Assembly: GCA_964618085.1 (NCBI GenBank)
Contig: CAZTZW010000002.1
Coordinates: 9,918-40,932 of the forward strand
Reading direction: 5' to 3'
Length of the DNA stretch: 31,015 bases
DNA from: an uncultured Elusimicrobia bacterium
GTDB taxonomy: Bacteria; Elusimicrobiota; Elusimicrobia; UBA1565; UBA9628
Below, in pieces: positions 1-30,553 of this stretch. Below the pieces are notes generated by a model. It made no database searches, was not told the origin of the DNA, and saw nothing but the letters and a program-made list of their open reading frames with translations. Made by a program: the position numbers and the translations under genes. How positions within the stretch are numbered: position 1 is the first letter of the stretch; every line of letters begins with the position of its first letter.

Positions 1-2083
1 CGCCGATGGGGCCGTCCAAGGCGTCCTGCACCGTGACGCGCATCTTGTCGGGGTACTCGGCCAGGTTCGGGATGAAGGACGCCGACAGGCCCGAGGGCGG
101 CACGCCCACGTTGGCGACGGACATGGTCTTGGGCGCGCCGATCTGGTAGTAGCTCGTGTTCGGGATGGACAGGCCGAGGTTGGCCTGGGCGGACACCGAG
201 GCCAGCGGGTTCACGTCGTAGGCCACGAAGTAGTCGAGCTTCGTGGTCTGGATGACCTGGCCGCCGCCGCCGATGAGGCTCAAGATGGGGATGCGCGCCG
301 GGCCGGAGAGGATGGTCCCCGCCGGGAAATCGAGCTGGGTCGTGCCCTCCTGCGCGCGGTCGCAGTTCGTGTAGCGGTTGCCGGGCAGGTCGAGGCCGTG
401 GCAGTACACGACCTCCTTGAGCAGCTCGTCGGTCTGGTCGTCGCCGAGGACGAGGCGGTTCTCGGTGTTGACGGTGAACGGGTTATCCGACGGGAACATG
501 GTGTTGGCGAGCAGGCCGGTGACCGGGATGTCGACGCCGGTCGCCGTGCCGGTGGCGTAGAGCTGGACGGCCGTCGGGATGGACGGGAAGAGGTGGGTGA
601 CCGCGTTGAGCGGGCTGATCTGCGCGTCGGTGGAGACATCCAGGAGGCCGTCGTTGTTCGTGTCGAGGTAGACGCGGATGTTGGTGATGTCGTCGGCCTT
701 GTTGTGCTGGGCGAACAGCGGGTTGTAGCCCGCGCCGGTGATCTTGCTCGACGGCAGCCAGCGGTCCAGCTTGAGGCCGGTCCACTCGGCCGCGCCGGAG
801 TTCACGCGCAAGGTCATCTTCGCCACGGGCTGGCGGTTGTCGTTCTGCGTGAGGCGCGAGGGGATGGCGTCGGTCGGCACGGTGCCCGAGGTCAGGCCCT
901 GGCGGTTCCAGTCCGTCAGCGTGATCTGGTCGGGCGTCGCCAGCACGGGGACGTTGGTCGTGGCGACGATGCCGAAGGGCTTGGGCACGCCGTTGCCGGC
1001 CAGCGCCTGGATGTTGCCCGACTGCAGCGTCATGCCGTGCGTCTGGCCCGCGGCCGCGCCCGCGTCGAAGTCGTAGACCAGGTAGTAGGTGTTCGTGGAG
1101 GTGGTGATGGTGCCGTCGATGCTCTGCGGGCTCGTCAGCACCAGGTTGGTCGTGCGCGTCTCGCCCGGCGGGAAGGTCGCCGTGGCGATCTGCTTGTCGA
1201 CGGTGAAGCCGAACTGGCCGTCGCCCACCGTGCTCGTCTGCGAGGAGTCGGTGTCCAGGTACAGGCGCACGCGGCTGATGTGCGAGTCCAGGCCCGTGCC
1301 CGAGTGCGCGATGCGGATGCTGGCGAGGGTGCCGGTGAAGGCGTCCGTCCACAGCTTGAGCTTCAGGACGCCGACGTTGAGCGTGCCCTGGTTGACGTAG
1401 CCGATCTGGTGGGTGGTCGTGGACGGCGGCTGCCACCAGGCGTTGATGTCCTCGGCCAGGATGTTGATCTGCGCGGCCTCGCGCTCGACCGGCGCGGTGG
1501 CGGTCCGGATGGTGAAGTTGTTGGCCGCGATGCCCACGGGCGCGCCGGGCGCGAGGGTGATGTTGGAGGGCCCCAGCATCTCCAGGCCGAAGGAGGCCGG
1601 GAGCTCGGTGGGTCCGAAGCCCGCGGAGGCGATGCGGACGGTGAAGAAGTAGAACTTGTCCTGCGTGCTGTTGAGCGTGACCTCGCCGCCGGGGAAGGCC
1701 GTGTCGAGGAAGGGCTGGGCGCCGGTGCCGAAGAACCACGAGCCCGCGCCGTTGTAGACGCCGGAGGCGAGGAACACGTCCTGGTCGGCCTCGAACTGGC
1801 CGTTGGGCGCGCTGGGGTTGTCGCGGTACAGCGCCAGCTCCACGATCTTGTTGTTGTCCAGGTTGCCCTGGACGCGGCTCTGCACGCGCATGGAGCGCAG
1901 GTCCGCGGTGAAGGGCGCGCCCGTGGGCTGGATGCGCATGTTCATGCGCAGCATGGCGACGGGGTTCTCACTGTTGGTCGTGGTGCCGTCGCCCTGGAGG
2001 AGGGCCGTCCGCAGTACCTGCAGGGCCACCTTCTGCGGGGGAAGCGGGTTCTCGGGCGCGAGGTCGGCGGGCGTGACGACCAC
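1..2083 (-). repeat. Further repeat family (about 180-200 aa, LYxD...G motif); three complete units and the start of a fourth
   Basis: LLQGDG...MLRMNM...ELALYRDNPSAPNGQFEADQD; VNQGTLNVGVLKLKL...RVRLYLDTDSSQTSTVGDGQF...YYLVYD; LTQNDNRQPVAKMTL...NIRVYLDTNNDGLLD...YFVAYD. Units start near 2083, 1480, 936 and 52. Confidence 0.7.
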
Positions 2084-5000
2084 GCCCGCGAACACGACGT
2101 CGCCGTTGGAGCGCAGCGCGGGGTTGGCGGGCAGGCCCACGCGCGCGCCGTCGTTGGTGAAGCCGTACACGGCCGCGTTGGCCGTGTCGGAGGCGCGGAC
2201 GTTGAGCGTCTCCACGACCTGGTTGACGACGCCGAAGTTGCTGAACACGCCGCCCTCGGCCGGGGTGAACTGGTGGTAGCTGGTGCCCGTGATGAGGTCG
2301 ACCAGGCTCACCGTCGAGGTCGAGCCCGAGGAGGCGAAGCTCACCACGCTGGTGTAGTAGTTGCCGTTCTGCGCGTCGCCGGACGCCGGGTTGCCGAACA
2401 GGTCGCGCGCCTGGATGGTGAGCACGCCGGGCACGCCCACCTGCAGCGGGTTGGACAAGGTGTACGGGTGGTTGATGGTCAGGTAGGCGCCGGGGCCGGG
2501 CGTGATCTGGTGGACCTGGGAGGTGGAGGCCAGGACCGGCAGGCCGCTGAGGTAGGCCTGGGCGCTGACGGTCGTGCCGCCCGACAAGGTGTCCCAGAAG
2601 TACATGGGCGCCTGGGAGACGCCGGCGCCGCCGGGGATGATGACGTCGAGGTGGCTGGTGAAGATGTTGTTCCAGAAGGCCGAGGGCGCGGTCGCGACGA
2701 TGACGGCGGCGGGATCGATGCCCGCGTAGACGGTGTCGCGCACGCTGGTGTAGCGGATGATGAAGGTGGCCGTCGAGGACGTGACGTTGCCGAACTGGTC
2801 CAGGAGCTGGGCCGCGACCACGGTGTTGGTGGGCACGCCCACCTCGATCTGGCGCGTGGTGCCGGCCACCAGGCGGCGGGGCGGCGTGGACCAGCCGATC
2901 TGGGCGGGCGGGCCCGAGACCACCGAGTAGCTGGAGTAGCCCACCGCCCACGTCGGGTAGGTGACGCCGAGCGCCGCCAACGTGTGCGTGGAGCCGGGCT
3001 GGGTGAGCAGGGTGTCGATCATGTAGAACGGCACCGAGGACTGGTTGACGGGCAGGTAGGCCACGGCGGTCGAGCTCACGAAGGCGCCGATCGTGGGCGT
3101 GGAGAACTTCACCTGGCCCGCGGAGCTCGTGACGAGCTTGAGCTGGACGAAGCCCGTGCCCAGGTCCTGGCCCGGCAGCAGCGGCGAGGCGTTGCCGTAG
3201 TAGTCGCGGGTCTCCAGGACCATCAAGCTGGACGTCGTGCCCGCGGGCAAGGTCTGGCCCGCGCCCGTGGGGAAGGCCAAGCGGTCGATGGTGTCGGGCG
3301 CGATGAAGACGCCCTGCTGGGCGCTGAAGAGACCGGGCGAGGCCAGCGTCACGACGGGCTTGGTGCCCGCGGTCAGGTCGTAGTTGCGCGACGCCGAGGT
3401 GTCCATGTAGTAGAACGTCGCGAAGTACTGGCCCAGAGGGATGTCCACGGTGGTCGTGGACGTCAGGAACTGCGGCGCGCTCACGCGCGAGCCCGGGAGC
3501 GAGTCGCTCGAGCGCGAGAAGGCCGCGTAGTCGTTGAGCTTGGACGGGATGCGGTCCGACTGGGTCGCCAGGTCCACCACATAGTTGCGCGTGGAGACCA
3601 CGGGGTTGCTGAACTGGTCCTGGAGCTGGACCGTGAAGCGCGCGAGCGTGCTGCCGAAGTCCACGACGCGGCCGGCCACCTGCGTGCGCTCGGGGTTGGC
3701 GAAGCCCACCTTCTTGGGCTCGTCGGGGTCCATGCGCAGGGAGTGCTGCAGCGCCAGGGTCGGCCCGGGCAGGAAGACCTTGATCGTCCACGAGCCCGGG
3801 CGCCCCCCCTCCGCCGTGTTGGAGGACGGGCCGGGGCCCGAGTAGGAGGACATGCGGCTATGGAAGCGGAAGGGCACCTCGGCGCCGGTCTGACCGTCGG
3901 AGATGCTGAGCGAGTTGATGAAGACGCTGTTGCTCGCGTCGCGGAAGCCGTAGTCGCCGGTGGTGCCGAACAGGCCGAGGGCGTAGCCGCGGTCGGTGTG
4001 CACGGTCTTGTCCGCCGCCTCGAGGTCGAGCAGCAAGGTCGTCGGGCCCTGGCGCGTGACGTTGCCGAAGTCGTCCTTGCGCTGGATGATGTACTGGCCG
4101 CCGGCGCCGGCCACGTCGTTGACGCCGACGAGAGCGGCGGTGGGCGTGCTGAGGAAGACGAGGCTGCTGGGCAGGCCGCCCACGCTGAGCAGGTTGCCGC
4201 TGATGTTCTTCTTGGCGGAGATGAACAGCGTGCGGTCCGTCGGCGCCGTCATCGTGCCGATCCAGACGCGCGCGGCGTCGCCAGCGGTGGACGAGACGTA
4301 GTAGCGGACGGTCGGCGTGGAGGCGCCGACGACGCCGGTGACCGCGGAGATGACCCGCGTGGAGAGACCCACGTTCACGTAGCCGGCGCCGTTGTCGACC
4401 TCGAGGTGGCCGGCCGCGCCGACCACGTCGACGACCTCCACGAAGACGGTCTGCGTGGAGGTGATGGGGTTATCGAAGGAGTCCGTGAGCTGGCCGCGGA
4501 TGTCGACGAAGCCCGGGTTGTTGGGCACCAGCGAGCCCACCGAGACGTTGATGTCGTTGATGATGGTGCCGTCGGCCTTGATGGAGTCGGGCGTGCCGGG
4601 CGTGACGGTGATGAAGGGACGCACGGAGAAGCCCGCCACCTCGCTGTTGACGCCGGGCAAGGCGGTCTGGAAGGCCTGCAGCCAGCGCGAGCCAGCCTTC
4701 TTGAGCTTGGCGAAGCTCACCAGGCTGCGCACGCCCTGGTCCGTGGTCGAGGAGAAGGTGACGTTGTTGCTCGGACTGAACTCCGGGTCCTGGTTGCCGC
4801 CGAACAACTCGGCCGAGAAGGTCACGTTGGAGATGTAGGCGTTGGGACCGGTGGACAGGCGGTTGTGGAACTGGTCGTGCGCGGTCACGTCGCCGCTGAA
4901 GGCGGAGCCCGCCGCGACCGTCGCCGGCAGGCCGCCCCAGTGCAGGTGGTGCGCCGGGCCGGGGTGGACGGGGAAGAGGGCGGAAGAGGCCTGGCTCCAG

Positions 5001-23000: not shown

Positions 23001-26000
23001 ATGCAGTCCGCCGCCGAGGCCGTGTAGGTGGAGACCGTGGGGTTCCAGTACTGCACGCCCACCTCGACGCGGGAGAGGCGGAAGTAGACGGTCTTCTGCG
23101 CGCCCGTGAGCGCGTCCGCGCCGTCGACGGCCGTCCCCGATAGCGCCGCCAGCGAGCGCTTGAACGCGACGTCGGGCATGGTCACGGCGGCCAGCGGCGC
23201 CGCGTCGTCGATGTAGTAGTCGCGCGGACCTTTGGGAGGAGCCTCAGGACCCGGCGTCGCGCGCGACTCGAGCTGGTATTTATTGAGGCTCGTGTAGCTC
23301 GCCGGCAAGATCGTATGCGCCCAACTGCGACCCGCCAGCGGAGTCGAAATCCAGATATTGAGCGCTCCCGCCTGCCAGACCGCTCCGTCCCAGGTGAGCG
23401 GGGCGCCGGTGACGTCCTGGATGCGCACTTCGACCCCGGACGCGGCGTCGTTGACCGTACCGGACAGCGTGGCCAGGTTGGAACGGAAGTGCGGCGTCGT
23501 GGCATCGGGCTTCTGGATGAGAGAGGCCGGCGACGGGGCGGTGAAGGCCACCCGGCTGGTGTTGGGCCCGGCGACCGAGACGCGGTCCTCGACGTTGGAA
23601 GCGTAGTCATCGGCCGCGGCCATGATATGGTAGGAGACGCCCGCGACGAACGACGGCGTCGAGGCTCCGGTCACGAACCAGTTCGCGGGGTTGCCGTTGT
23701 CCGAGGACGCCGCCACCCAGTAGTTGGACGCCGCGCCGGGGACGTCGGGCGGCACGGACGCGTCGGGTAGGTCGAAGAGCTTGGTGGCCTTGTTCCACCA
23801 GTTCGCAGGAGAAGGCCGGTAATAGGCGACGTAGATGCTGCGCAGGCCGGAAAGGCCGGTATCCTGCGAGGTGCCCGAGAGGGTGGCCAGCGAGTCCGGG
23901 GTGGTACCATGGACCGGGAAGGTCACCACCGACGCCGGTTTAGTGAAGTCGGCGGAGAAGGCGATGGTCGAGTACGAGACCTGCATCCCCGTCGCGCGAT
24001 CGATGGCGCGCGCGTGCGCCTCATAGCTCAGGCCCGAGGTCCACGCGGCCGAGCTCAAGGTGAACGACCAGGGACCCGAGCCCGTCACGCTCGAATTGTT
24101 CCAGATCTCGGGGCCGCCCGCGACCCAGGAGCCGTTGGGCCCGGCCGAAAGGTTCAGGTAGAAGCCGTCCGAGAGGCGGCGCACGCGCACCTGCACGACG
24201 TCCACGATGCCCGCGCCCGTGTCGACCGCGTTGCCCGAGACGAGTCCCGCCTGCGAGATGAAACCTCCGTTGGCCGGCGAGGTGATCGTGGCCGTGGGCC
24301 GGTAGGTATCGTAGACGAAGGCGGCCGTGGACCAAGAGACGACGGAGGCGTTTCCGGCCTGGTCCACGGCCTGCGAGCGCATGTCGTAGCCGAGGTTGTC
24401 CGTCCACTCGGCGGCAGGCGGCATGCTGAAGCTCCAGTCCTCGCTGTCCTCATCGTAGAGGCCGTCCTGCGCCGCAGCGTTGGGCCAGGGATTGGGCTCG
24501 GTGCCGGACCAGGCCAGACCGGTCCAGTAGCTGGTGGTCGGCGGCGTGAAGCGGCGCAGGCTCACCCGCACCGCGGCGAGGCGTCCGCCGGTGTTGTCCA
24601 CGGAGGAGCCCGTCGCGAAGGTGAACGTCGAGCGCGTATGCAGACCGGCGGACGGGGCGGAGATGGCCGCGGAGGGACGCTCCGGGGTGGGTTGGTACTC
24701 GTCCAGGGTGAAAGTCACCGTGGACGGCATCACCTGGACCGACCCCGTCCAGTCCTTAGCACGGACCACGACACGGAAGACTTCACCGGAGTTACCCGCT
24801 ATGAAAGGAACCGCTAGGGACCAGGTGCCGCTGGAGAGGCCCGTGTGCGGCGTGTAGGTGACGGAGCGCCAGAAATCGGGCTCCATCGCAGGATCGGCGA
24901 TACCGGCCTCTTCGTCGCTCGACACCCAGCCGCTCGTGTTCCAGTTCCACGTCTGATCGAGACCCTGGCGGTAGACGTGCACGTAGACGTTCGACACCCG
25001 ACCGCCGTTGAGACCGGAGCCGAGGTCGGAGGCCGTGCCCGTGAGCGTCGCGAGCGCGCTGACGAAAGAGCCGTTCGTCAGATTGGTGAAGGCCGCGGTC
25101 GGGCGGTCGACGTCGAAGAACACGGGCGTGACCTGGGCGCCCGTCCCCGCGACCCCCGGCGAAGACTGGCCGGTCTCGTTGGTTGCGAAGTCGCGGATGC
25201 GGGTGCTCAGCTCATAGCGGATGCCGTTGGTCCACGCCACGCCCGAGCTGTTGTAAGCCCACAGGCCGTCCGAGGCGCTGTCTGCGAGGAGGAACCAGAT
25301 GGGGCTGCCCGAGGGGTTGAACTGATTGGCGCCACCCGCGACGCCGTTGGGGTCCCAGTAAAGCGAAGTGCCTTCGCGGCGTATGAAGATCTCGGCTTGA
25401 TTGGGCAGGCCCGAGTTGGCGTCGGACGCCGTTCCCGAGATGGAGTTGATGGATGTCACCGCCGTACCGCTGGAAGGCACCGCGATGTTGCCCAGCGGCG
25501 CGGTCACGTCCCAGGTGAAGATGCGCGGCGTCCCCTCGGCGACGTTGCCCACCGAGTCGCGCGCGCGCGGGATGATCTCGTAGTCGCGCGCGTCCACGAA
25601 GCCGATGGCGCCAGGGACCGTATAGGACCACGGCGAGCCCTGGACCGTGGTCGGCGTGTAGGTGGCGAAGGAGACCCAGGCGCTGGTGAAGCCGCTCCAC
25701 CACCGGCAGCCCACCGCGGGCGAGCCGCCGGCGCAGGAACCGCCGGGGCTGCTGGCGATGGCCACCTCGGTGAGCGCGAGGGCGGAGAAGTCGGAGGCGG
25801 TACCCGAGATGGTGGGCAGGCGGTTGATCTGGCTCTGATTGGGCGTGGTCACCGCCGATAGAGGATTGACGGCGTCCACGCTGAAGGTGACCGAGTTGAT
25901 GCCGACCGTGAAGCCGGCCTCGACGTTAGAGAGCTTGGTCCCGCTGGCGCAGTCGGTGTCGGCCGTATCGCCGCCGCGGTCGCAGGCGCGCGTGTAAAGC

Positions 26001-29000
26001 ACGTAGGAGATTCCCGAATCGCCCACGGTGAACGCCGGACTGGTGAAGGTCCACGAGCTGGGATTCAGGGTCGCGTCGGGCCAGTTGGCGGGCTGTGCGC
26101 CCCAGGCCGCGCCGCCCAGCCAGAACAGACCGTCGGATTGTCGCTGGATCTGGTACTCCACGCGGTTGACGCCGGCGTGCTTATCGTAATAGCCGCCGGC
26201 GAACGTCGTCGCGCCGGGACCGAGTGTGTTCAAGTGAACTGGATGGGTGATGCTGTTGGTCGGTTTGACCACGTCCCAGAAGAAGGTGTGGGAGCTGATG
26301 AGCGGACCGTTGAAATTGTGCTCATGGGAGAAGAGACTGTTGTTCGCATCGCGAGCACGATCGCGGGCAGTCACCCGTAATGTGAACGAGGAGCCGCTGA
26401 TCTCGTCATCGGTCCAAGGGGTAGGACCACCGAGGGAGTTGGCGGCCCAATCCACGTCGTTGAACCCCAGCTCCCATGCCTGCGAAAAGATCTCCGTCGG
26501 ATCGGCGAAGGTCGTGTTCTTTGGCACGCGGCTGTCGAGCGCGTTGATGGCCGTCGCCACGGCGCCCCAACTCGCGCCGTTCCAGTACAGATTGTCCTTG
26601 TGACGGTAGATGCGTAGGCGGACGCCCTCGAGAAAGCCGTTGCTGTTGTCGGTCGCGGTACCCTGGATGAGAGTCAAGGTCGTGCGCGTGGAGAGGGCGA
26701 TGGGAACGGAGGCTCCCGCCGTAGGCGTGGTGTTATCCACGCGGAAGGTGCGGTCGGTCGAGGTCAAGGTCAGGTTGCCCGCGGCATCCTCTGCGATGGC
26801 GGACAGCGCGATGCGCGCGTTGTTGAACAGGCCGGAGTTGAACGCGTAGGTCCAGCTATTGCCCCCCGTCGCGTTGATCCAGAACGGACAGCCCTGGTCG
26901 AACGTCGTGCCGCTCCAGCAATTATTGGTGCCGAGATCGCGCAAGGAGACCGAGCTGACCTTCACCGGGAAAGAATCGAGGGAAGTACCCACGACCTGGG
27001 TGAATCCACGGTAGACGCCTTCGTTCACGCTCGGCAGGCTGATGCTGACGACCGGAGTCGTCTCGTCCACGACGAAGGCGTTAGTGGTGCCGCCGACGCG
27101 CCAATTGCCCGCTTTGTCGGCCACCTGGAGAGAGAAGTAGTAGGTCGCGCCGTCGCTCCAGGCGCTCACTGGAAAGGTGGAGCGCCATGCGCCGGTGCCA
27201 GAGTTCCAACAGGTCAGGCCGCAAGACACCGTGGAGAAGTACACGCCGGTGCCGCCCCACGTCTCGGAGGCGCGGTTCCAGTATTCGGTGGTGCCCGAGA
27301 TGATGCGGCGCAGCTGGAAGTTGAGGTTCTGGACCTGACCGGGAGAGATGTCCCCCGCGGTACCCGACAACGTCGTGAGCTGGAAAGCGCGGTAGTAGCC
27401 CGAGAAGGTCGGCGCGTTGAGGTTCACGGGATGAGTGACCGCTCCCGTAGGATTCTGCGTGTCGAAGACGAAGTCGGCCGTGGTAGGGGTGCCTTGCACG
27501 TTGCCCGTATTGTCGACGGCTCGCACGCGCACGCGGTACTGGCGCGTCGTCGTCCAGATGGCGCCCAGACCCGTTATCTGCCATGGATTGGCGCCGGTCG
27601 CCGGATTCCATATCTGCCCGACCTGCCAGGCGCCGCCGGCCACGTTGCGGTACTGATTGTTCGAGAGATCCTGGATCTCCACTTCGACGCGGGCGGTCTC
27701 GGAGACGTTGTTGCCGATCCCGTCCGAGGAAGTGCCGGTGATGGTCGTCAGCGCGGCGTAATGGTCGTTATGGACCGGGAGTTCGACGTAGGCGGTCGGC
27801 TCGGTGAAGTCGCGGGTATAGGCGATGGAGAAGCCCTCGCCCGCGTACAAGTTCGTCGCCCAAGGGAAACCGCCGTACACTGTCGGTTGGAACGCCGAGT
27901 CGAAGGTCGCGCCGTTCCAGCGGTAGATCCGCAGCTGCCGGGCGGTATTAAGGACCGTGACGAACATCTCATCGATGGCCGGATCGAGCGGGTTGCTGAC
28001 GATGCTCACCGCCCGGGGCGCACCGACGTTGTCGGCGGTGGTGACTTCTCCCGCCCAGGCCGTGCCGTTGAAAGTGTTGTAGCGGATATTGTTGCTGCCG
28101 TCGGCGTAGGCGAGCAGGAGCTGGCCGCCGGATCGCTCGTAGGCCAGATCGAAAGGACGGTAAGCGGAATTGACGGAAACGACAGCACCTTCCAGGCCGA
28201 TATTGGTGTTGCCCCAAGTATCGTTGGCGCCGTTGAAGATGGTGACGTTGAGATCGTTCGAGTTGTCCTCGACGCCGAGCGCGATGAGCTGGCTGGTCGG
28301 ATTGCCGGCCAGTTTGACCCAGCGCGGAAGCTCGTTGCCGCCATCGGAGAGGTCGGGTCCGATGAGGGCGGCCGACCAAGAGGTCATGCTCGCGTACCAG
28401 ACGGCATAATAAGGAGTGTTCTGCGTGACCGGGGCGTTGGGACCCCAGGTCAGCAGGCCTTTGACGCCCGCCGAGGTCCAGGCCACGTCGAACACCTGGG
28501 TCCGGTTCTCGAGCGTACCCGCTTGGGACAGAGCGGTCTCGAACGTGGTGACCGCGCTCCAGCCGGTGCCGGTCCAATGAGCCGCGAACAAGTCGTCGTT
28601 GGAGTCCTGAACGACGAGGAGGATGGAGTTGGAATCCCGATTGGGGCTGGGCTCCAGGCGGACGAAGACGGGGGTACCGGTGCCGGGCCAGGCCGGCACG
28701 GCGATGGCCGTGCTCCAAGACGCGGCGCCATCGGCGCGCGTACGGTACTGCGGGGTGGCGCTGCCATTGGAGTAGACGATGAGCGAGTCACCGGTGGAGG
28801 TCTCGTAGGCGGCCTCGGCCGCCTTGAAGACGTTGTAGCGCGCCGCGACGTCCAGACCGACGGTATGCTCGAAAGCCGCGGCCCAGCTCGTTCCGTTCCA
28901 GATCGCCGTGTTCACGTCGCCGTTGTTATCGACGAAAGTCGCCAACTTCTCGTTACGGCGAGGACTGGCGCGCAGGCTCACTTGGTACGGCGCGCCCCCG

Positions 29001-30553
29001 ATGTCCGAGCTGAGGCTGTCCGCGGCGTCCCAGTTCGTCGTATTCCACTGGCGATACGGGATGATCGATGCGTTGCGCTCGTAGACGATCTGCTCGCCGT
29101 CGCTATCGTAGCTCCAGCGATCGGGGTTGTTGCCGGTACCGCCCGTGATATCCGAAGCCAAGAGGGTCGCTGTCACGTCCCATGCGTTGCCACCGGAATC
29201 CCAGCGCTGGAACATGAGGTTGCCGTAGTTGTTGACGGTGAACAAGAAGAGATTATCCGTGCCCGCCTCGCGCACGAGCCGCTGGGTCTCGATGAAGGTC
29301 GAGGAGCCGTTGCCGTTGTCCACAGAGGAACCCGAGTTCTCGGCGGACCAGCCGCCGCCCGAAGTCCAGGTCCGGTAGCGCGGGGTGGCGACGCCGTTCT
29401 CCACATAAGTGACCAAGGCGCGACTCGAAGACTCTTCGAAGGAAAGTCCGATGTCGGGACGCGTGTTGGCTTGCAACGCGGTCTCCACCGCGCTGTCTTG
29501 GGTGGTATTCACCCAGGCGGCGCCGTTCCAGGTGGCCAGGGACAGGTCGCTGCCTTGGTCCACGCGAGCCATAGCGATGTTGTTGGAACCGGCGGCGGGG
29601 TCGGCCGCCAGGTAGATCCAGTTGGTATCCTGGTTGCCCGCATTCTCCAGGTCGGGCGTGTCCGTGCCCGCCGCCCAGACGCCCACGAGACTCAAGGTGG
29701 CCGTCTCATGAACGCCTCCGGCGCCGGACGCCGTAGGCGCGACGACGACCAAGCCGATGCCGGAAGCGGAAGAGAAGGCGATATCGAAGCCGCGCGTAGC
29801 GGGGTTGTCCACCGTCGTCGCGGCGATGATGACGCCGTTGGTCAGGTTGGAGGAGGTCCAAGTATTGCCGTTGAAATAGGCGCCGTAGAGCTCGCCGCCG
29901 CTGTCCTGCAGCACCGCGCCGAACTGCTTCTGGGTCGAGTCGCGCGGACGGCCTTCGATGCGGGCCCAACGCACCGAGTTGCCGCTGGTATTGACGGCCA
30001 CGCCGAAGGCGCGACCGGTCTGCCAACCGTTACCGCCGCCCGACACCGGCCCGTTCCAGCTGGCCCAACGCGCGTTCGTGGTCGTGGCCGCGTTGGTGGC
30101 GTCGCTGTAGACGATGACGGCCGTGCTGCCCGCCCACTCATAAGCGACGTCGAAAGGCTGGGTCGCCAAGGTGGGCGTGGTCTGCAGGCCGGTCTGGAGG
30201 GTGACCTCGTCTCCCCAGGTCGTCGCGACGGGGTCGTAGACCTGTGCCCACAGGCGGCCCGTGTCGTCCAAGATGACCAGGATCTTCTCGCCCGCGCGAG
30301 GCGAGTTCGGCGGAGCCACCACCAGTCGCGTCCACTGAGCGTTGGCTTCAGAACCAAGAAGCTCCTTGGCGACGCTCTCCGCGCCGAACGAAGCGCCGCC
30401 CCAGGTCCGCAGGTTGGGCTTGGTCTCGGCGCGATTGAACATGATCATAGCCTCGCCCGCCGAACTATCGGCGAGGCGGGGCGCGGCGACCATAAGCGCT
30501 GGCAGGAGCGTCCCCAAGGCGAGGGCGATCCGGCTCAGGCGCGAGGACCTCAT
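1..30553 (-). CDS. Giant secreted multi-domain surface protein / putative adhesin (at least 10,184 aa, 3'-truncated by the window edge)
   Basis: ATG at 30551-30553 has an in-frame TAA two codons upstream (30557-30559), which fixes the start. Translation begins MRSSRLSRIALALGTLLPALMVAAPRLADSSAGEAMIMF and is still coherent at the left edge (...AEYPDKMRVTVQDALDGPIG). No minus-strand ORF in the track lies in this frame (all end at coordinates 0 or 2 mod 3, none at 1 mod 3), which is expected if the frame has no stop. The long plus-strand ORFs are codon-aligned with this frame. Codon third positions are strongly G/C in this frame (20/20 at 2-61 and at 6542-6601). Confidence 0.96.
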   Translation of the reverse strand, partial: MRSSRLSRIALALGTLLPALMVAAPRLADSSAGEAMIMFNRAETKPNLRTWGGASFGAESVAKELLGSEANAQWTRLVVAPPNSPRAGEKILVILDDTGRLWAQVYDPVATTWGDEVTLQTGLQTTPTLATQPFDVAYEWAGSTAVIVYSDATNAATTTNARWASWNGPVSGGGNGWQTGRAFGVAVNTSGNSVRWARIEGRPRDSTQKQFGAVLQDSGGELYGAYFNGNTWTSSNLTNGVIIAATTVDNPATRGFDIAFSSASGIGLVVVAPTASGAGGVHETATLSLVGVWAAGTDTPDLENAGNQDTNWIYLAADPAAGSNNIAMARVDQGSDLSLATWNGAAWVNTTQDSAVETALQANTRPDIGLSFEESSSRALVTYVENGVATPRYRTWTSGGGWSAENSGSSVDNGNGSSTFIETQRLVREAGTDNLFLFTVNNYGNLMFQRWDSGGNAWDVTATLLASDITGGTGNNPDRWSYDSDGEQIVYERNASIIPYRQWNTTNWDAADSLSSDIGGAPYQVSLRASPRRNEKLATFVDNNGDVNTAIWNGTSWAAAFEHTVGLDVAARYNVFKAAEAAYETSTGDSLIVYSNGSATPQYRTRADGAASWSTAIAVPAWPGTGTPVFVRLEPSPNRDSNSILLVVQDSNDDLFAAHWTGTGWSAVTTFETALSQAGTLENRTQVFDVAWTSAGVKGLLTWGPNAPVTQNTPYYAVWYASMTSWSAALIGPDLSDGGNELPRWVKLAGNPTSQLIALGVEDNSNDLNVTIFNGANDTWGNTNIGLEGAVVSVNSAYRPFDLAYERSGGQLLLAYADGSNNIRYNTFNGTAWAGEVTTADNVGAPRAVSIVSNPLDPAIDEMFVTVLNTARQLRIYRWNGATFDSAFQPTVYGGFPWATNLYAGEGFSIAYTRDFTEPTAYVELPVHNDHYAALTTITGTSSDGIGNNVSETARVEVEIQDLSNNQYRNVAGGAWQVGQIWNPATGANPWQITGLGAIWTTTRQYRVRVRAVDNTGNVQGTPTTADFVFDTQNPTGAVTHPVNLNAPTFSGYYRAFQLTTLSGTAGDISPGQVQNLNFQLRRIISGTTEYWNRASETWGGTGVYFSTVSCGLTCWNSGTGAWRSTFPVSAWSDGATYYFSLQVADKAGNWRVGGTTNAFVVDETTPVVSISLPSVNEGVYRGFTQVVGTSLDSFPVKVSSVSLRDLGTNNCWSGTTFDQGCPFWINATGGNSWTYAFNSGLFNNARIALSAIAEDAAGNLTLTSTDRTFRVDNTTPTAGASVPIALSTRTTLTLIQGTATDNSNGFLEGVRLRIYRHKDNLYWNGASWGAVATAINALDSRVPKNTTFADPTEIFSQAWELGFNDVDWAANSLGGPTPWTDDEISGSSFTLRVTARDRARDANNSLFSHEHNFNGPLISSHTFFWDVVKPTNSITHPVHLNTLGPGATTFAGGYYDKHAGVNRVEYQIQRQSDGLFWLGGAAWGAQPANWPDATLNPSSWTFTSPAFTVGDSGISYVLYTRACDRGGDTADTDCASGTKLSNVEAGFTVGINSVTFSVDAVNPLSAVTTPNQSQINRLPTISGTASDFSALALTEVAIASSPGGSCAGGSPAVGCRWWSGFTSAWVSFATYTPTTVQGSPWSYTVPGAIGFVDARDYEIIPRARDSVGNVAEGTPRIFTWDVTAPLGNIAVPSSGTAVTSINSISGTASDANSGLPNQAEIFIRREGTSLYWDPNGVAGGANQFNPSGSPIWFLLADSASDGLWAYNSSGVAWTNGIRYELSTRIRDFATNETGQSSPGVAGTGAQVTPVFFDVDRPTAAFTNLTNGSFVSALATLTGTASDLGSGLNGGRVSNVYVHVYRQGLDQTWNWNTSGWVSSDEEAGIADPAMEPDFWRSVTYTPHTGLSSGTWSLAVPFIAGNSGEVFRVVVRAKDWTGSVQVMPSTVTFTLDEYQPTPERPSAAISAPSAGLHTRSTFTFATGSSVDNTGGRLAAVRVSLRRFTPPTTSYWTGLAWSGTEPNPWPNAAAQDGLYDEDSEDWSFSMPPAAEWTDNLGYDMRSQAVDQAGNASVVSWSTAAFVYDTYRPTATITSPANGGFISQAGLVSGNAVDTGAGIVDVVQVRVRRLSDGFYLNLSAGPNGSWVAGGPEIWNNSSVTGSGPWSFTLSSAAWTSGLSYEAHARAIDRATGMQVSYSTIAFSADFTKPASVVTFPVHGTTPDSLATLSGTSQDTGLSGLRSIYVAYYRPSPANWWNKATKLFDLPDASVPPDVPGAASNYWVAASSDNGNPANWFVTGASTPSFVAGVSYHIMAAADDYASNVEDRVSVAGPNTSRVAFTAPSPASLIQKPDATTPHFRSNLATLSGTVNDAASGVEVRIQDVTGAPLTWDGAVWQAGALNIWISTPLAGRSWAHTILPASYTSLNKYQLESRATPGPEAPPKGPRDYYIDDAAPLAAVTMPDVAFKRSLAALSGTAVDGADALTGAQKTVYFRLSRVEVGVQYWNPTVSTYTASAADCITTTDATCLTPNVGALPANTYAVTHASFTDSTAFEADRAYTAILVARDRAGNGTTINRPFTWDVTAPTSGITLPNGSTPLRTLGSPQVSGTANDTFSVHAISASVRSLRNGLCYNPGTLFFTETCPFWLATSSTPAADWSLTDANLNAALATFSTYYTVLSRAVDVAGNGQTSFVASVSSRTFLVDAVPPTTVITLPGHGNAYRGSQLSGVSNPFAGTATDPGAPFNSGLRRVDIRLSYVAGDTWYWQGTVFSSGTGVSNSGWFPATDTLWSSIGAVTWRSADTQYRLESRAEDASFLKDGTVSGNVSVPATVGTDIVDFVVDDTIPTTGLTAPLGANVSALGSIAGTADGDLAGISRVELRIQRTAGGPDEDWTGSSWTALNDHYSTAAVGGTFGLQSWTYSDLAGAFGNDQQYRLFVRVVDRAGNVRSAPGGGDHTFRYDSVAPSLTVSFPAAPPALPPYSNNPDSTRFSTHTWGTVGDAGVVPSGVREVWVAISSGAAQNMWWSDASRSFSVSLSTIHWSSQVYRAGQNTWDYSVPQLETQLNAGGDGVNFSVFVYARDVASNTVNFSLGMLPGASAAGQTQAFKYDISNPTSTVAVPANAANLNALTTFSGQYVETGSGVSGIQRAYLAVRHNDGGSAPIGWWNWGTGAFDTGISDPPPAPPSSAWTQVSSTSLQGVTALAWSTAVPVGMLESSATYRAVTVALDNATNIQQNPAVAGAGAAFRYDTQVPTAAITSPVNSVYLNAVALGSLLGTANDETTGASGLQTVQILLKLQDDQSYWNGSVTGNIATDWDTSPTKHAQWRGVTGLTSWSQAFPPLTNADSRAFRVWVRATDRAGNTSATPSNGQLDANLNADGSPALVFNYDNTTPLSRVTYPPAYSQSAPATITGTAVDEPVAFNPSGVNDVRLKVRRSDGQYWNLFGGAWGADPGFLNNSRSGLNPWTFTAFVGAFADGYRYDVNSQSFDAATNVETAYSTYTFVVDLTTPASRVNWPHDGAFVSSSIVTIVGTADDRFCFFNGGLCAPGTRSFEAGFQNSSVTIAVAEINVTTTWWTGTSFASGVPVWSTAVFTGSSSGTWTFPLSAGALTSNRVYKVVSRSKDRADNQEVVLTTNTFVFDTTAPVSIATAPTGFNAGATAIYGTASDANPGQLSVVRLTIQETACSGGTCNIGDYWNGSAWQGAPIEISSGVIGAVVSPGVRQWVYDATTTAWDNRSTYTVTARAVDVIGNVESAHGLFDIQFYLQSPDATLALTQPPAPDLQHYGPNSAGTVNTIIGNGSNMRLANGVELVLQRLTPPASYWTEGTTSWGSAPSINNINVVAGTPQNWSRSITSAYHVDNASYSVAATAINASGIPGNTDSRTFVFDRVTLVTVVTSPSGTPCAGAGACLNSLPVLAGTATDPGAVVAQSVAQTGVKFRLKDNPANRYWNGTAFQVGAFEFGPGSFAGTTLFTFSTTTLAGPALQDGVDYTVYAHAADKALNDQTVEASMANFTFVYDTSTPVGLLVSPSSGQVYLDLSVISGTSFDPDGVYGSNRKSDVRKVELEIYEPHNDQYWSDTGSDFNQSLSSFNAVVGTGPWTYSNPALTGALESGRGYRITVRALDFAGNIQGQFSSPLSSRTLSIDKAAPLAGFIKPANGQSYKSSDLTGGSALTGTAVDSEAALYPSNDALQNVNTVIWYLLGGTSYYYTGVIGSNGTKFSSNTVESSEWRVATGTDSWRLFFDSLDWIGDRQYYAKTRARDNARNASGAVVGNLGSTFASPVSQVSFVVDDTPPVSAVVTPAPGAFIQNLNALSGTSNAALSQASAYYLRAWYVVGASSHYWTGSSWGLANVQTQLPVQLSGSTGTVAWTYPGTLPGQSAPTITEADGTVYGVAIQARDNAGNLETPATVQVTLDRVGPVVTISTPMVSMPDYGAGRPLTSFLGGSTDAPGGTARVLVQIEDTTDNLKWNGTSWVVAGSTFLITSGTNPWTFVSPTWIDNKQYLLTAIATDTAGNVSGVTPVVSFKYDVNKPSTTILVPSQAFYPLGQPTTLSGTAVDWVTGLGVKSGLNRVEIAIREPDGDYWDGSTVFTPVINYRRVSTTTADPAAWQYPPSNPAGDVLPSWQDTVQYTVRLRSVDNTGNVENPEIVYSFTYDAQAPTTTISTPIDDSYATAFVLSSGTYAEATSGLVQMYVAVRENLTLNWWNGAAFAPFGGASWRPTQVHTSSWSFTDAALSADIASRAQPRTYTFYVRGIDGAGNQNRAGTEPLTPGNDLRIDYFAPVSGFTHPTNNSALVGGATPIAGTADDQSTAGTQGIGMAQVQLSVSRENSVAFREYWDGIGWFAANPGFVIPTTLLGGAQTITPFQSQPANLPEGAFADGYRYRVVARARDQFSFTDATYSTTTFIMDRSTPTATILRPDRPYVSTNTLSVSSGSFTEPLVGGNIPSGLAQVLVQIEDVSDLATPPHAVPLCGGSCRWYNGSSWQSVPVNIAATAYQSSWVITGLPSGTGASAVAPSFTRGDLSPNGRQYVVRVAATDQAGNAGAFPNYFTAVTTITFDGTTPTSGVTFPAGPDDTTTTSLASITGTASDALVNASSSAVRFTYLSIWNNDTNPGDPNANSYWNESAGSWATPGGPPIWNPAVYNAGTGEWAFSSPSIDTNLRNLSFYTMISSAVDNAGNVQTPTPVAGTPGRRRLQFQPPPAVTAVSVPVSLTRYNQLAGMQGTANVNTISVKFQIKRLDTNQCWGGGTTGHGWVGCGVDDSTNTRVVLPVAGNWGYPPAGEVLPTWSTVNNTTFTVKTTGVNLAGIDELAPQQVNFYIDLSSPTSSVSFPVNTTFVSTHPVLRGGSTDFLSVGAGAVGAGIKDPNGVRFRLRRLDNNFYWDHLTSTWVVGVTASTAVYLPGSNTWTYQSSTPTLTWMDGLTYSLDVFAEDRAQGAASGNTEIPAAPITFGYDSSRPLVGITAPVNPPARHGQLTLASIAGTASATAPNTVRKVQLRVFSEAGGQFANPASGLSFNQPDGDLAWFDATHAGSWINWTASSAVPYVNGGTYTVVARSENGAGTYAVPYSSVVVVYDNLAPQSGVTTPAHASVINSLSALGGTVSDLPVGNPGLVPTMRLRFKRLSDGAYWDGAPGAGAWQPGPVPQTLAAAQGVTPSVPTWSMAGINRPTPADLTSGTSYYLTSSGLDNAAGGGNAELFDSPRGSTFTYDVTPGYAAVLFPLPGVFRNSMAVVSGVSSDNVAVSTVQLSVQNTSIASPNCYDSALNNFTAACPAWFGAKGSTATWNFTFGVQPWTQAHVYVFHSSATDLAAVAQTVVSSTSFTYDVVVPTAAVDAPVSAGALSPLLASISGTALDAPSGIGTLRLAVSSAAGAGGWYNGTSFNGGLETYFSTSAYSFGPDVWGWVYPALTNGQAYVLRSSATDRAGNSRAQDFAFTFDSSLPAATVSDPVQGGFKGVNFAVTGGSSDPDPDGIGPLSATGVSTVSVSIQRLGTNLCYVYGGGFSAPCPNFIPAGGAVGAWTFTANPNPYTSGVSYIVAARATDNAGNEQAVFTPAVSSVTFVYNTAVPTVGVTFPNQTRHRSLTTISGTAADAVPTALGQVEVRILQQTGLTRYYNAGSGFFDIQPNPIPAETAWLQAASASVPLWTSWTLSSGTPFQSGTQYRIEARARNQSGNYSTTYSSQTVIFDTDPPVTDVRLPVNVSTISSLSSMSGTANDVAGSLPGLVDDVRLQLVRLSDGFRWDSASWVAGAAQMTENEGIQVHQTSWTLVTNLPAANNLPTGLQHGASYYATTSGLDDSFSGGNAEPFFTPARASTFTVDLVGPNVGFQAPSDGSVLATLAKIRGTAVDALAGVSAASQIDVAIGEMSPGQGCWDGSVTPGTFTLTGCPIYYPIASGGRNGTFAGGVWDMDAPALTTQYTYRVWVRARDNAVPAANVSSAGQISTTTFSFNTSLPAVALTSPPSLPATGGNRSVAFGIAGTASETFGVAAASVAYQEADSGMWYSHISGTFSATSPVWRPTVLSGTVPNYTFTATPPVLPASAGRDYNIVPKAIGSTGLEGVGSANTVKWDTTAPGSGVSAPGASSYGKALALVSGTAVDAGGAPAGVAGTQLQIKRVSDNICWNGATWIANCSTEASWLTPVTGSPWTKNTQLPPPNNLPGGLQDGERYDLASRAFDFAANTQTALTTNIFRFDVSSPTAFVQLPANGARYSSLPLVSGTAQDAAPGLTTFPQVRIYNIALNQYWVDGTGWVSSGFPGFPELWNVALDSQTAVGGIGDGNAYTWRYNASAVAWADNNGQLRVESRVTDAAGNYTSASSTFSFDATRPASVVTYPTANGQTFSSMTSIQGTSSDITSNVADVRVKMWYVTGPTTYYWSPAPPHWGLVDGGFFSINGSGGPFGVNNPWDYNSTQVPDFATPGTLNYAWKEGTHDGLNGKTFNIITQAVDEAGNVQTALSTRTFRFDNVPPLSGPVAPIPDSAYNSLTVLSGTSVDAESSVSAVAVSIFEEETSRWFDGTSFVAGPQVWMPVLPLNLFPSSWTFTNGSLAYAPSRHYVVRSSATDSVGNRQTASGFARFLFDTAEPTSAVANPVNLTTYDDTKILVGSSSDPGFTSGINGTGSGVFPTLGWHQGAVEVAVFRDTAPLISGGPIAPGGNDGSGYFWNGSTWVPAVAGTPVWVPASFADSFGGWQYSGLVCPTPNPTGIPCWVRGDPYVTWSRVRDNAGTLQSVVSAGPRYFISGIAQSFSIVVSSDPSTVGNDIQITVTARDGLNGTGGVASNYNQSVNFAMAGGPETMDTDFIADSVYGLPSTYTFTTGPGNDNGSKTFTLRMRRAGARVLRIEQTDNPALFGTLNFTTHRDAATRVQLIADADASCTGGPGQRPGPGVVTPGSEGRLGTPRTFVAGQTVQYCVQVTDNFYNVYMDSAATVYVSDGDPNNGAFAPGNDRFVSFTGSTTFNWTFVTASPAGQVVQSTGAGVFPNASNPASPVPVVGLPATRLVAVLPGETRVQGKFNVQPLGKSGAPNQTFAGSTYTVRVHAVDDFFNDDLSVSFPVQADIFPDLYSSSYTQSLTLGVTDFAFHPVVAGTHSIQVQAAALAAGTSFYVTPNSFEVWWSTPVKLQAVAEGQVAAPGRSPFDADPTSGGRSVAAPATLTAGVTTSIRINLTDAYFNVVRGTTPFIPLPSNIVMPLVRFDFLNDANIQGRLLAPNPYQRTLVAGTTTFTFPPVTRNAGLQVRASDTGATGTSYSTDTVTGIQVDANVPVSLLTLMPGESFVEGTVAGKSGTPSVLTAGQTYSVTARAVDLYNNRAVDGRPVRLDVNDVYATVPAQQPLALGQTVFSGFLPSAATGNLTVTAADDGVVPPFLSSLTVTGVSVIPNAPDRMIVLLPGQVLVPGKNIAPFGVGGPAAISTAGVFFTPTIYATDVRYNVVNSVTQSAIALTSDDPFASSLGSFAMVGGAASAPNLILRTAGSRVLTATDADAGAPALVAGVSGALPLNPNSTTRLRALTPLETRVPGSTTNGRTGSAYTTLAGVAFDATVDLTDAFWNLTPGASQEIRLVADDPFAVIVPTTQVITTSATYNVTLKRAGSTLLRAEMVNAVPPFGPVVAQDTATAVNVLPGVPTRLLTRLPGESFSQGSPTGKSGVATPQQAGASFSVQVGVVDAFFNIVTGRAADVKINTPSDGFALFVSTLGINPLAGITPPMTVTLRRAATDHFLSAVDYGSSGLSTDPQSSTFTVVPDLPMGLQVLMPGQTAVPGGGDYPNGGVTGTISTRTAGAPFTATINLVDRYMNPTSAGGFPFVHLTSNDEFDVDSATGPLAGGTLPAGMTLVTKTTGARLTAGVRGQPADLVCTGNTPSNICRAESPAAVTGAFKVYASTAVGLFVTVPGETYRPGKCDHLPGAVCRLLGPLEGAPGKDGTASAFVMTFPAGSMNADVWLVDQFYNPVTDNTGSSQDTNPVAVMPTVALNFPADSAAAVPAAQTLFQGNWTFGVTPLTSSTTWSIRVATTGASASTWSQASSALFPVHPGPAHHLHWGGLPATVAAGSAFSGDVTAHDQFHNRLSTGPNAYISNVTFSAELFGGNQDPEFSPSNNVTFSSTTDQGVRSLVSFAKLKKAGSRWLQAFQTALPGVNSEVAGFSVRPFITVTPGTPDSIKADGTIINDINVSVGSLVPNNPGFVDIRGQLTDSFDNPITSTQTVFVEVVDVVGAAGHLEVDNGAGYVNVGLSTRVISAVTGVVGASTPTVRYYVSSTAGDAARVWIGTMTAPTDRTLFISAKKNISGNLLSVGGLPSSLVFLSTPTAALVGVNDVAGAGGQYIIQRKDDFGNVTRQGPTTLLLDLEAADKTVHTDRGYALGLFGTTGDYGFRDASNSVFINSLSISDGQTGAEVPFRFHSRMSSYSGPGPSSNTAEGGRPGSWTIKVFLPGPTLALQHSLRMDPDEPKKVGFANPERTQVAGRVVDFGSTLARFTVQLQDQFSNPVVSTRNYVVDLATQSDRIPSKLNDYAAFSRSSDSLPGSRVSAPQFLTSTTTVDIPLGQYFATFYYMDTSASRNYDLTAGTKPVVTLASPGLFSAQQGVFIAPDTIDRLAFPTGAGQTLPAGTTSSLMVLETRDYYGNASPLLPGQDLGTGFVQLKLVTSSAGQVKFSTPTIGAFVSSTAVAYLPVNQSSVPFYMIDTLLTQPGSTHTLAALGVTYPTWAVGYSSYSVVSGPPAQIGWSTPPRRLVAGTTRQIEVGVPTNTVVAAQLLDQFGNVTSSTATFIIRYTSVRDTVYAGIDPAAVIVATAPSAFWNNIFTSHLDVIIPGGAGVSQAPMYFWDTLSGGTTVSAQAYLSGLPVLASTSQVHQITPGPGAYLTINHPYTLSNPLQVGVPGVLTIQARDLFGNPASGDAQNGNYYTSVVSFASSGSTSTVSLVDLITGTSYHQFTPAEGGVFSNFGVVNQVVETLNVRASDTANAAVYGFTNDGARVGLPANPALRSNGDVVFAGVVVTPADLAPENPLPPQKVALQVLRTALLQGDGTTTNSENPVAMLRMNMRIQPTGAPFTADLRSMRVQSRVQGNLDNNKIVELALYRDNPSAPNGQFEADQDVFLASGVYNGAGSWFFGTGAQPFLDTAFPGGEVTLNSTQDKFYFFTVRIASAGFGPTELPASFGLEMLGPSNITLAPGAPVGIAANNFTIRTATAPVEREAAQINILAEDINAWWQPPSTTTHQIGYVNQGTLNVGVLKLKLWTDAFTGTLASIRIAHSGTGLDSHISRVRLYLDTDSSQTSTVGDGQFGFTVDKQIATATFPPGETRTTNLVLTSPQSIDGTITTSTNTYYLVYDFDAGAAAGQTHGMTLQSGNIQALAGNGVPKPFGIVATTNVPVLATPDQITLTDWNRQGLTSGTVPTDAIPSRLTQNDNRQPVAKMTLRVNSGAAEWTGLKLDRWLPSSKITGAGYNPLFAQHNKADDITNIRVYLDTNNDGLLDVSTDAQISPLNAVTHLFPSIPTAVQLYATGTATGVDIPVTGLLANTMFPSDNPFTVNTENRLVLGDDQTDELLKEVVYCHGLDLPGNRYTNCDRAQEGTTQLDFPAGTILSGPARIPILSLIGGGGQVIQTTKLDYFVAYDVNPLASVSAQANLGLSIPNTSYYQIGAPKTMSVANVGVPPSGLSASFIPNLAEYPDKMRVTVQDALDGPIG
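302..580 (-). other. Inserted module of about 90 aa resembling phage tail-fibre/tail-protein N-terminal domains
   Basis: IPTAVQLYATGTATGVDIPVTGLLANTMFPSDNPFTVNTENRLVLGDDQTDELLKEVVYCHGLDLPGNRYTNCDRAQEGTTQLDFPAGTILSG, with RAQEGTT at 338-358. It interrupts the third LYxD repeat, and the two preceding units lack it. Similarity is recognised by motif only. Confidence 0.5.
2084..4957 (-). repeat. Seven further Ig-like modules: one bracket module plus six intimin/invasin-like DxFGNP modules
   Basis: Motifs AHDQFHNR, LTDSFDNPI, RKDDFGNV, LQDQFSNPV, TRDYYGNAS, LLDQFGNV and ARDLFGNPA. Most are preceded by ..L.F......(V/L)AG. The D-x-(F/Y)-G-N-P turn is typical of Big_1/invasin-type domains. Confidence 0.65.
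4958..8467 (-). repeat. Nine tandem 'LPGE' Ig-like modules (about 130 aa each)
   Basis: Consensus (R/K)L...LPG(E/Q)...PG...G(K/R)xG.P....AG..F...V...D.F.N. Examples: VAVLPGETRVQG...GKSGAP, LTLMPGESFVEG...GKSGTP, IVLLPGQVLVPG, LTRLPGESFSQG...GKSG, LQVLMPGQTAVPG, FVTVPGETYRPG. Confidence 0.8.
8828..27811 (-). repeat. Array of about 49 diverged bacterial Ig-like (BIg) repeats, about 129 aa each
   Basis: Recurring consensus DxxxP..(V/I)..P....L..ISGTAxD...V.V.I....YWNGxxW....W...W...W.DG..Y...RAxDxAGN....F. I counted 49 linker positions, spaced about 330-460 nt apart. The DxxxP and DxAGN signature matches SiiE/BapA-type BIg domains (Pfam Big_3, Big_6, Big_7 and Big_13 style); the exact family is not determined. 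Confidence 0.88.
27812..29100 (-). other. Predicted beta-propeller domain 2 (8 blades, paralogue of domain 1)
   Basis: Same A/B alternation: AAYETSTGDSLIVYSNGSATPQYRT, FVRLEPSP...VQDSNDDLFAAHWTGTGW, VFDVAWTSAG, RWVKLAGNP...EDNSNDLNVTIFNG, PFDLAYERSGGQLLLAY...RYNTFNGTAW. It ends with a closing strand GFSIAY. Confidence 0.6.
29101..30457 (-). other. Predicted beta-propeller domain 1 (8 blades, alternating A/B blade types)
   Basis: Four A-type blades (for example PFDVAYEWAGSTAVIVYSD, GFDIAFSSASGIGLVV, DIGLSFEESSSRALVTY...PRYRTW) alternate with four B-type blades (for example WARIEGRP...LQDSGGELYGAYFNGNTW, WIYLAADP...VDQGSDLSLATWNGAAW). The fold is inferred from the repeat pattern only. Confidence 0.6.
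30458..30553 (-). other. Predicted Sec/SPI signal peptide of the giant protein
   Basis: Basic n-region (R2, R5, R8), hydrophobic h-region IALALGTLLPALMVAA, and c-region PRLADSSA with possible cleavage after A-D-S or S-S-A. No lipobox Cys and no twin-arginine motif. Confidence 0.8.

Follow-up and report, generated by a model that had tools for sequence, protein, structure and literature searches.

Can a reading frame of more than ten thousand codons in GC-rich DNA be a gene and, if so, what might a protein of that size do for the cell that makes it? The question is posed by a stretch of 31,015 nt from an uncultured Elusimicrobia bacterium (the window, meaning the whole of this stretch; G000:C2:9918-40932), on the minus strand of which a single frame stays open from an ATG at position 30553 to the left edge. 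We conclude that this frame is part of one giant gene of 11,871 codons, and that its product is probably a cell-attached surface fibre, exported by Sec, sorted by a C-terminal domain (CTD) and bearing a ligand-binding beta-propeller head at its distal end. The source genome, G000, is an Elusimicrobiota metagenome-assembled genome (MAG) and shares its genus with CP096137.1, a closed genome from Lake Zurich (order UBA1565); the lineage is uncultivated, from freshwater and bioreactors.

Reading frame and full extent of the gene

Long spurious frames are common at ~70% GC, the composition of the window, and coding was therefore tested directly. In a listing of open reading frames (ORFs) with open ends allowed, the minus-strand frame ran for 10,184 codons with zero stops up to the window edge, with a GC content of 0.575, 0.554 and 0.935 at codon positions 1, 2 and 3. 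Its translation has a motif that recurs regularly at module boundaries, and an N-terminus resembling a leader. A second genome of the genus, G006, holds an N-free, uninterrupted ORF of 11,867 codons (JANRKA010000041.1); window residues 26-10184 aligned with residues 28-10189 of this orthologue at 76% identity, collinearly and in a single high-scoring segment pair of 10,195 columns. The minus-strand frame at 2..30553 was thus confirmed as a true coding frame, beyond chance opening in high-GC DNA.

The first-pass annotation of the window had described a stop-free frame of at least 10,184 codons, and the open-ended listing, the third-position GC content (GC3) and the collinearity with G006 bear this out. 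It had also called the ORF hidden from the ORF track: the default listing does omit it, although the cause is a convention that drops frames running off the window and not biology. A 3,260-aa plus-strand ORF had been taken for an antisense shadow, and we agree, because its codon-position GC mirrors that of the true frame.

2..30553, minus strand: giant coding sequence, codons 1-10,184 (open frame, GC3 0.935, collinear G006 orthologue, dN/dS)
398..10180, plus strand: antisense shadow ORF, 3,260 aa, not a gene (GC by codon position 0.981/0.525/0.596)
Window 1..7 = G000:C2:9799-9805, no strand assigned: junction overlap CGCCGAT, 7 nt (7-mer common to both contigs)

The right end of the window is the end of the scaffold, and 10 Ns lie directly to its left (G000:C2:9908-9917). 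In the contig beyond them, a separate minus-strand frame is open for 1,723 codons (GC3 ~0.93) and reaches a stop at G000:C2:4736-4738. A reading straight across the Ns, which yields 10,335 aa, was rejected as the gene end, since the residues past the gap are out of frame. Residues 35-1723 of the left-hand piece aligned with G006 residues 10188-11867 at 81% identity; at the junction the window reads ...DGPIG, the left piece ...PIG-AFLQQ and the G006 counterpart DGAIGPFLQQ. A type-D stalk module (aa 10143-10261 / 10181-10330) is intact across the join, and in an unrelated bioreactor metagenome one contig runs from C2:9798 directly into C2:9918, with exactly 119 nt skipped and 7 shared letters. 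The collinearity with G006, the junction overlap, the spanning module and the bridging contig show the two contig pieces to be one gene with essentially nothing missing. The last 109 nt of the left contig (G000:C2:9799-9907), the plus strand of which reads as a HisKA-like histidine-kinase fragment, lie outside the giant gene and are, to judge by their sequence, a chimeric contig end.

The leftward extension to a stop codon that the first-pass annotation had proposed therefore carries the gene across the 10-N gap. The full gene has 11,871 codons (35.6 kb), 1,687 of which lie beyond the window to the left of the gap, and the joined protein of 11,871 aa has a mass of 1,244 kDa, an isoelectric point (pI) of 4.8 and 47 Cys residues. 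The dN/dS ratio against G006 was 0.20-0.43 in every 1,000-aa segment, with 90 gap columns in total, and this comparison between species showed purifying selection along the whole length of the giant gene. Full-length, uninterrupted orthologues bearing the same head occur in three other species, with 11,867 (G006), 12,465 (G014) and 14,374 (G028) codons, and a G009 orthologue of ~11,868 codons is spread over three frames. The gene fills ~1% of a genome of 3.4 Mb, and purifying selection has preserved it intact across species; its product must therefore matter to the lifestyle of these bacteria. Giant genes of this kind come out broken or truncated from gene callers and long-read assemblies, and the public protein records of the family are fragments labelled 'hypothetical protein'.

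Architecture of the protein

The part of the protein encoded in the window reads as a leader, a double-propeller head and a long modular stalk, which were delimited with an iterative self-built hidden Markov model (self-HMM), AlphaFold2 (AF2) models and Foldseek searches.

30470..30553, minus strand: Sec-type signal-peptide-like N-terminus, aa 1 to ~28 (read from the translation; conserved in orthologues)
29138..30469, minus strand: head, beta-propeller 1, aa ~29-472 (AF2, Foldseek, ~55-aa blade repeats)
27893..29122, minus strand: head, beta-propeller 2, aa ~478-887 (AF2, Foldseek)
8597..27862, minus strand: stalk, 50 tandem type-A immunoglobulin (Ig)-like modules of ~128 aa, aa 898-7319 (iterative self-HMM, AF2, Foldseek)
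2144..8590, minus strand: ~17 type-B/C modules of ~125 aa, aa 7322 to ~9470 (self-HMM; 9-10 clear copies plus related ones)
2..1996, minus strand: first type-D modules, aa 9520-10184 (self-HMM; the array of ~10 runs past the scaffold gap)

The putative leader, read by eye from the translation, has a basic n-region and a ~17-aa hydrophobic core without a Cys lipobox, in line with the signal peptide proposed in the first-pass annotation. The two propellers proposed there were likewise recovered. The AF2 model of the head is all-beta, with a mean predicted local distance difference test score (pLDDT) of 84.7 and a low-confidence linker at model residues 444-450, and its repeats of ~55 aa are blade-like, giving 7-8 blades per propeller. 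The best PDB matches of the model in Foldseek were tandem-propeller proteins, with the PHL lectin matching one half.

The head has W-rich blade motifs of its own, and no Pfam, NCBIfam or PDB sequence match was obtained with it. An exhaustive protein search with the head retrieved 959 cluster representatives at E<=1e-3, mostly matching propeller 2; a word-indexed protein search confined to candidates of 5,500-17,500 aa gave nothing, the database holding fragments only. Propeller 2 is the unit most widespread elsewhere: many of its relatives are stand-alone proteins of ~440 aa with a Sec leader, and others are ~550-aa proteins with a PilX/pseudopilin-like N-terminus. Its neighbours in AFDB are sialidase-like, lectin or carbohydrate-binding propellers, together with the PilX-fused form. 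The head thus belongs to a widespread, unannotated propeller family of at least 959 clusters, which is probably a binding module. Members of the family also occur in Saccharibacteria and Parcubacteria MAGs.

The type-A modules share a mutual identity of ~25%. Two of them modelled together gave a pair of Ig-like sandwiches (pLDDT 89.2), for which Foldseek returned Ig-like sandwiches including the repeats of MpIBP RII (4p99) and of an Aeromonas RTX adhesin (6xi1), the Deinococcus radiodurans HPI S-layer and fibronectin type III (FN3) domains; Pfam matches in the array were weak (Big_13, Big_3_2 and Big_3_3). Type-B/C modules carry the motifs LPGE...GK.G and D.F.N, and the type-D modules, with ~10 self-HMM matches over aa 9520-11255, have Asp/Asn-rich loops. 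No Pfam family was assigned to types B, C and D, for which permissive Pfam scans gave only sub-threshold matches to Ig_GEX2_N, Zona_CL2, GEVED, FG-GAP and fn3, and an ESM Atlas feature search with type-D modules gave scores of <=0.77. The segments that follow the type-D array are Ca-loop/FG-GAP-like and FN3-like, both sub-threshold in Pfam.

The first-pass estimate of roughly 70 Ig-like domains agrees with our count of ~71 in the window (50 type-A, ~17 type-B/C and ~4-5 type-D), where the fold-level check covered type A only. In the full protein, ~27 beta-rich modules follow the 50 of type A, for a total near 80. Its four Ig-like families reduce to three sequence families, as types B and C are related. 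An 11-module super-repeat had also been suggested. Identity at a lag of 11 modules does exceed the overall value (26.2% vs 24.7%, p ~0.008), but there is no signal at lag 22 and a similar bump occurs at lag 27, and the excess in the type-A array (8597-27862) is at most a weak remnant of an ancient duplication of 11 modules.

The motif E.I.Y...RG..GT....H..G recurs in the type-D region, including at 302-580 in the window. With regard to an earlier suggestion of a phage tail-fibre module, no PHROG match was obtained with the window copy; a copy past the gap, at residues 256-318 of P0003, matches phrog_1101, a phage tail protein family, marginally (E=2e-4).

At the true C-terminus, the last ~86 aa form a FlgD_ig domain (PF13860, 34-39 bits against a cut-off of 27), the match ending 16 aa before the stop, and the terminal residues AIRKIGVIH are invariant in all orthologues. 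The first-pass annotation had proposed examining the C-terminus for an export or anchoring signal such as a type IX secretion system (T9SS) CTD or a FlgD-like domain, and a domain resembling both FlgD_ig and a type-A CTD was what we found. At least eight other large ORFs in the genome have C-termini that align with the CTD, and several of these ORFs pass TIGR04183. In the C-terminal 1,723 aa an NCBIfam scan at E<=0.1 gave no TIGR04131 (type-B CTD), Pfam and NCBIfam scans of the whole protein gave no RTX/HemolysinCabind match, and a PDB sequence search with the C-terminal half found nothing. Another very large ORF of the same genome (G000:C11:2-18511, plus strand; GC3 0.95) is cut by the contig edge, measures at least 6,170 aa and has a type-A CTD end (TIGR04183, 29 bits).

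Neither transmembrane segments nor enzyme domains were found in the protein; Pfam, NCBIfam and PHROGs searches of the 11,871 aa gave no peptidoglycan hydrolase, glycosidase, protease, toxin, Rhs or beta-helix domain. Together with the acidic pI, these features fit an extracellular fibre.

The conserved slot, its heads and candidate export genes

The giant gene sits in a conserved slot, in which it is flanked by two HEAT-repeat genes and followed by a CHASE2 nucleotide cyclase gene, with housekeeping genes around; the arrangement is kept in G006, G009 and G014. The TGA of the upstream HEAT gene overlaps the ATG of the giant gene (ATGA), and a promoter and terminator scan upstream of the giant gene, where the upstream gene abuts its start, gave nothing. 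The HEAT/cyclase arrangement may reflect a role as chaperone, tether or regulator.

30550..31014, minus strand: 3' end of the upstream HEAT-repeat gene (HEAT_2, E=4e-21; same neighbour in G006)
G000:C2:3591-4670 and 1492-3594, minus strand: downstream genes, a second HEAT-repeat gene and then a CHASE2 adenylate/guanylate cyclase gene (neighbour annotation)
G004:C128, G005:C11 and G019:C1, no strand assigned: slots with other heads (orthologous stalk and CTD)

In G004, G005 and G019, the slot holds a gene equivalent to ~11,400-11,600 aa, in several cases split by frameshifts or N-runs, the stalk and C-terminus of which are 50-64% identical to those of the giant protein and the N-terminal head of which is unrelated. 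These alternative heads are of two other types, neither with a Pfam family. A patchy distribution of the gene within the genus was considered and dropped once inspection of the slots showed that relatives carry the gene with other heads; in G013 (C37) the slot lacks the giant gene.

Among orthologues that share the head, the head is the most diverged part, with 59% identity to G006 against 74-86% elsewhere, and its coding region (26001-30553) has a lower GC content (0.63-0.65 vs ~0.70). The lower GC and weaker conservation would fit a head with a history of its own. Between species, the number of type-A modules ranges from ~44 to 65, the B and D counts are constant, and so are the C-terminal two fifths with the CTD. 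As the C-terminal part is constant and the stalk length and head type vary, the protein resembles a conserved anchor with an exchangeable binding tip.

Candidate components of a T9SS-like export route were found elsewhere in the genomes of the genus. A SprA-like protein of ~1,850 aa matches TIGR04189 (Sov/SprA; E=1.3e-47; 162 bits, cut-off 200) in all five genus genomes tested, including G000, and in none of 14 control genomes; it is 72-88% identical among the genus genomes, and a PDB sequence search with it found nothing. Each genus genome also has 12-18 PorV-like barrel ORFs, all sub-threshold, and these often lie directly downstream of CTD cargo genes, forming a recurring pair of co-directional ORFs, the first ending in a FlgD_ig or Por_Secre_tail CTD and the second a PorV-like barrel of ~300 aa.

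G000:C141:15-5177, plus strand: SprA-like gene (TIGR04189 match)
G010:C17 (L036:4501-10044), minus strand: SprA-like orthologue (conserved ~1,850-aa protein)
G006:C111; G009:C1:1011713-1017058; G013:C14; G019:C1:3209503-3215116, no strand assigned: SprA-like orthologues (conserved ~1,850-aa protein)
G000 C61:8590-9050, C27:12021-12895, C35:8007-8749, C230:1483-2372, C32:6642-8255 and C236:731-2085, same strand within each pair: CTD cargo / PorV-like pairs (profile matches)

Probable function and comparison with known systems

The architecture and its conservation led us to favour a Sec-exported, CTD-sorted and cell-attached surface fibre with a distal, ligand-binding propeller head, which we consider the probable function of the giant protein. 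Sec would carry the chain across the inner membrane, and the CTD would direct it to a divergent SprA-like translocon for passage over the outer membrane, with PorV-like barrels helping. The chain would stay attached at or near its C-terminal end, so that a beaded fibre would extend roughly 0.3 µm if each module spans 4-5 nm, a reach comparable to the cell width. Held at the distal tip, the propeller head would bind to a surface, a particle or another cell, its ligand there probably being a glycan. The recurrence of the head module in secreted stand-alone proteins and on PilX/pseudopilin-like N-termini supports the idea of a binding tip.

Several observations weigh against this interpretation. 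The CTD scores 13.5 bits on TIGR04183, under the 23-bit cut-off, and the SprA-like and PorV-like matches are all below curated cut-offs. No PorV-like gene adjoins the giant gene. PorU/C25, GldM and GldL were not found in the five genus genomes, and no control genome matched these models either, so that absence does not follow. No ligand-binding site was identified in the head, and its resemblance to lectins is confined to the fold (9-18% identity). A search for RNA runs listed none.

The alternative that survives best, which we nonetheless consider unlikely, is a structural component of the envelope: a long spacer, a 'fur' or an S-layer-like coat that sets surface properties, such as hydrodynamic drag or protection from grazers or phages, and binds no specific ligand. 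Ig-like tandem arrays also build S-layers, as the match to the D. radiodurans HPI S-layer recalls, several other large ORFs of the genome are CTD-tagged, and no binding site was identified. However, a double propeller at the terminus, exchanged from one species to another and found again on pilin-like proteins, is more typical of a binding tip, and one gene copy per genome with a 1.24-MDa product is ill suited to a lattice coat.

Less plausible again is a weapon for contact or predation, as proposed for the giant proteins of Omnitrophota, which would tether prey or host and deliver or present lytic activity; the first-pass annotation had mentioned a predation apparatus. Giant genes of phyla of the Planctomycetes-Verrucomicrobia-Chlamydiae (PVC) group, including Elusimicrobiota, have been interpreted in this way, and a member of the genus came from a co-culture of an amoeba and a cyanobacterium. 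Yet the domain searches described above, which covered lytic, protease, toxin, Rhs and beta-helix domains, leave this suggestion without an enzymatic, toxin or predation-type domain, and aerobic heterotrophy is described for the published genus member, whose genome is 3.8 Mb. Very improbable, and largely refuted already, is an assembly artefact or an unexpressed gene in decay, with the long frame a by-product of repeats and high GC: the scaffold gap has a chimeric contig end, the orthologues in G009, G019, G004 and G005 are spread over several frames and no RNA runs were listed, but GC3 is 0.94, dN/dS and gap columns against G006 are low, three other species have uninterrupted ORFs, an independent contig bridges the junction, modules only ~25% identical to each other make repeat collapse unlikely, and G019 is an unpolished Nanopore R9.4.1 assembly in which frameshifts are expected. 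These rivals are less well supported than the surface fibre because the heads are exchanged, no catalytic or toxin domain was found and the conservation favours a functional gene.

It is possible, although we put this forward tentatively and with some doubt, that the order UBA1565 has an undescribed, stripped-down T9SS-like pathway that exports the giant protein. Such a pathway would combine a SprA-like translocon with PorV-like barrels that pair with CTD cargo and would lack a recognisable PorU sortase and PorLM motor, and its 1.24-MDa product, combining a conserved anchor and stalk with species-specific, horizontally exchanged heads, would act as a modular 'reach-and-bind' organelle for prey, hosts or particles. 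Our literature search found no paper linking Elusimicrobiota to a T9SS; if confirmed, T9SS-like components outside the Fibrobacteres-Chlorobi-Bacteroidetes (FCB) group would bear on the origin of the T9SS and on its minimal parts list.

The first-pass annotation had presented the locus as a candidate for an undescribed giant adhesin, and this novelty was overstated, since proteins of 10,000 aa or more have been reported to be frequent in Elusimicrobiota, and to be functionally uncharacterised (West-Roberts et al. 2023, bioRxiv 10.1101/2023.11.21.568195; PMC11573180). The giant genes of the PVC group are the same phylum-level phenomenon; the surveys count them and analyse Omnitrophota examples, which have transmembrane anchors and beta-helix, dockerin and lytic domains. 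In our literature search, no description was found of the architecture, conserved locus, head exchange or CTD of the giant family. Far larger bacterial proteins are known.

For the head, the closest parallels are beta-propeller lectins (Photorhabdus PHL, 6fhx, and fungal fucose lectins) and sialidase-like propellers, each half of the head having a similar fold (TM-score 0.65 to a PHL chain); with 11-12% identity to the lectins, the resemblance is at fold level only. For the stalk, the type I secretion system (T1SS) adhesins SiiE, LapA, MpIBP and the Aeromonas RTX adhesin offer a parallel, in that their rigid stalks are built from tens of Ig-like extender modules in tandem and have the ligand-binding region at the distal end. 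However, adhesins of the SiiE/LapA/MpIBP type lack a cleavable leader and have C-terminal RTX repeats with a T1SS signal, an N-terminal plug, and ATP-binding cassette (ABC), membrane fusion protein (MFP) and TolC genes nearby. In the giant protein the polarity is reversed, with an N-terminal head and a C-terminal tag, a leader is present and no RTX repeats were found; its gene has HEAT-repeat, CHASE2 cyclase and housekeeping neighbours in G000 and G006, and no ABC, MFP or TolC genes.

Another close parallel is SprB of Flavobacterium johnsoniae, a giant T9SS-secreted surface adhesin of ~6,500 aa with a type-B CTD and a dedicated PorP/SprF partner. SprB is the mobile adhesin of the gliding machinery in Bacteroidota, and forms a surface fibre of roughly 0.15 µm or longer. 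Both proteins start with a Sec leader, continue as a very long beta-rich filament of repeats and end in a sorting domain of T9SS type, a putative one in the giant protein. In contrast to SprB, the giant protein has 11,871 aa, a type-A/FlgD-Ig-like CTD and a double-propeller head, and its gene has HEAT-repeat neighbours, one of which lies downstream where SprB-type loci have an adjacent PorP/SprF gene. Among giant bacterial surface proteins, then, the gene is striking and not unprecedented, and the T9SS-like components and the exchange of heads are its most interesting extensions of what is known.

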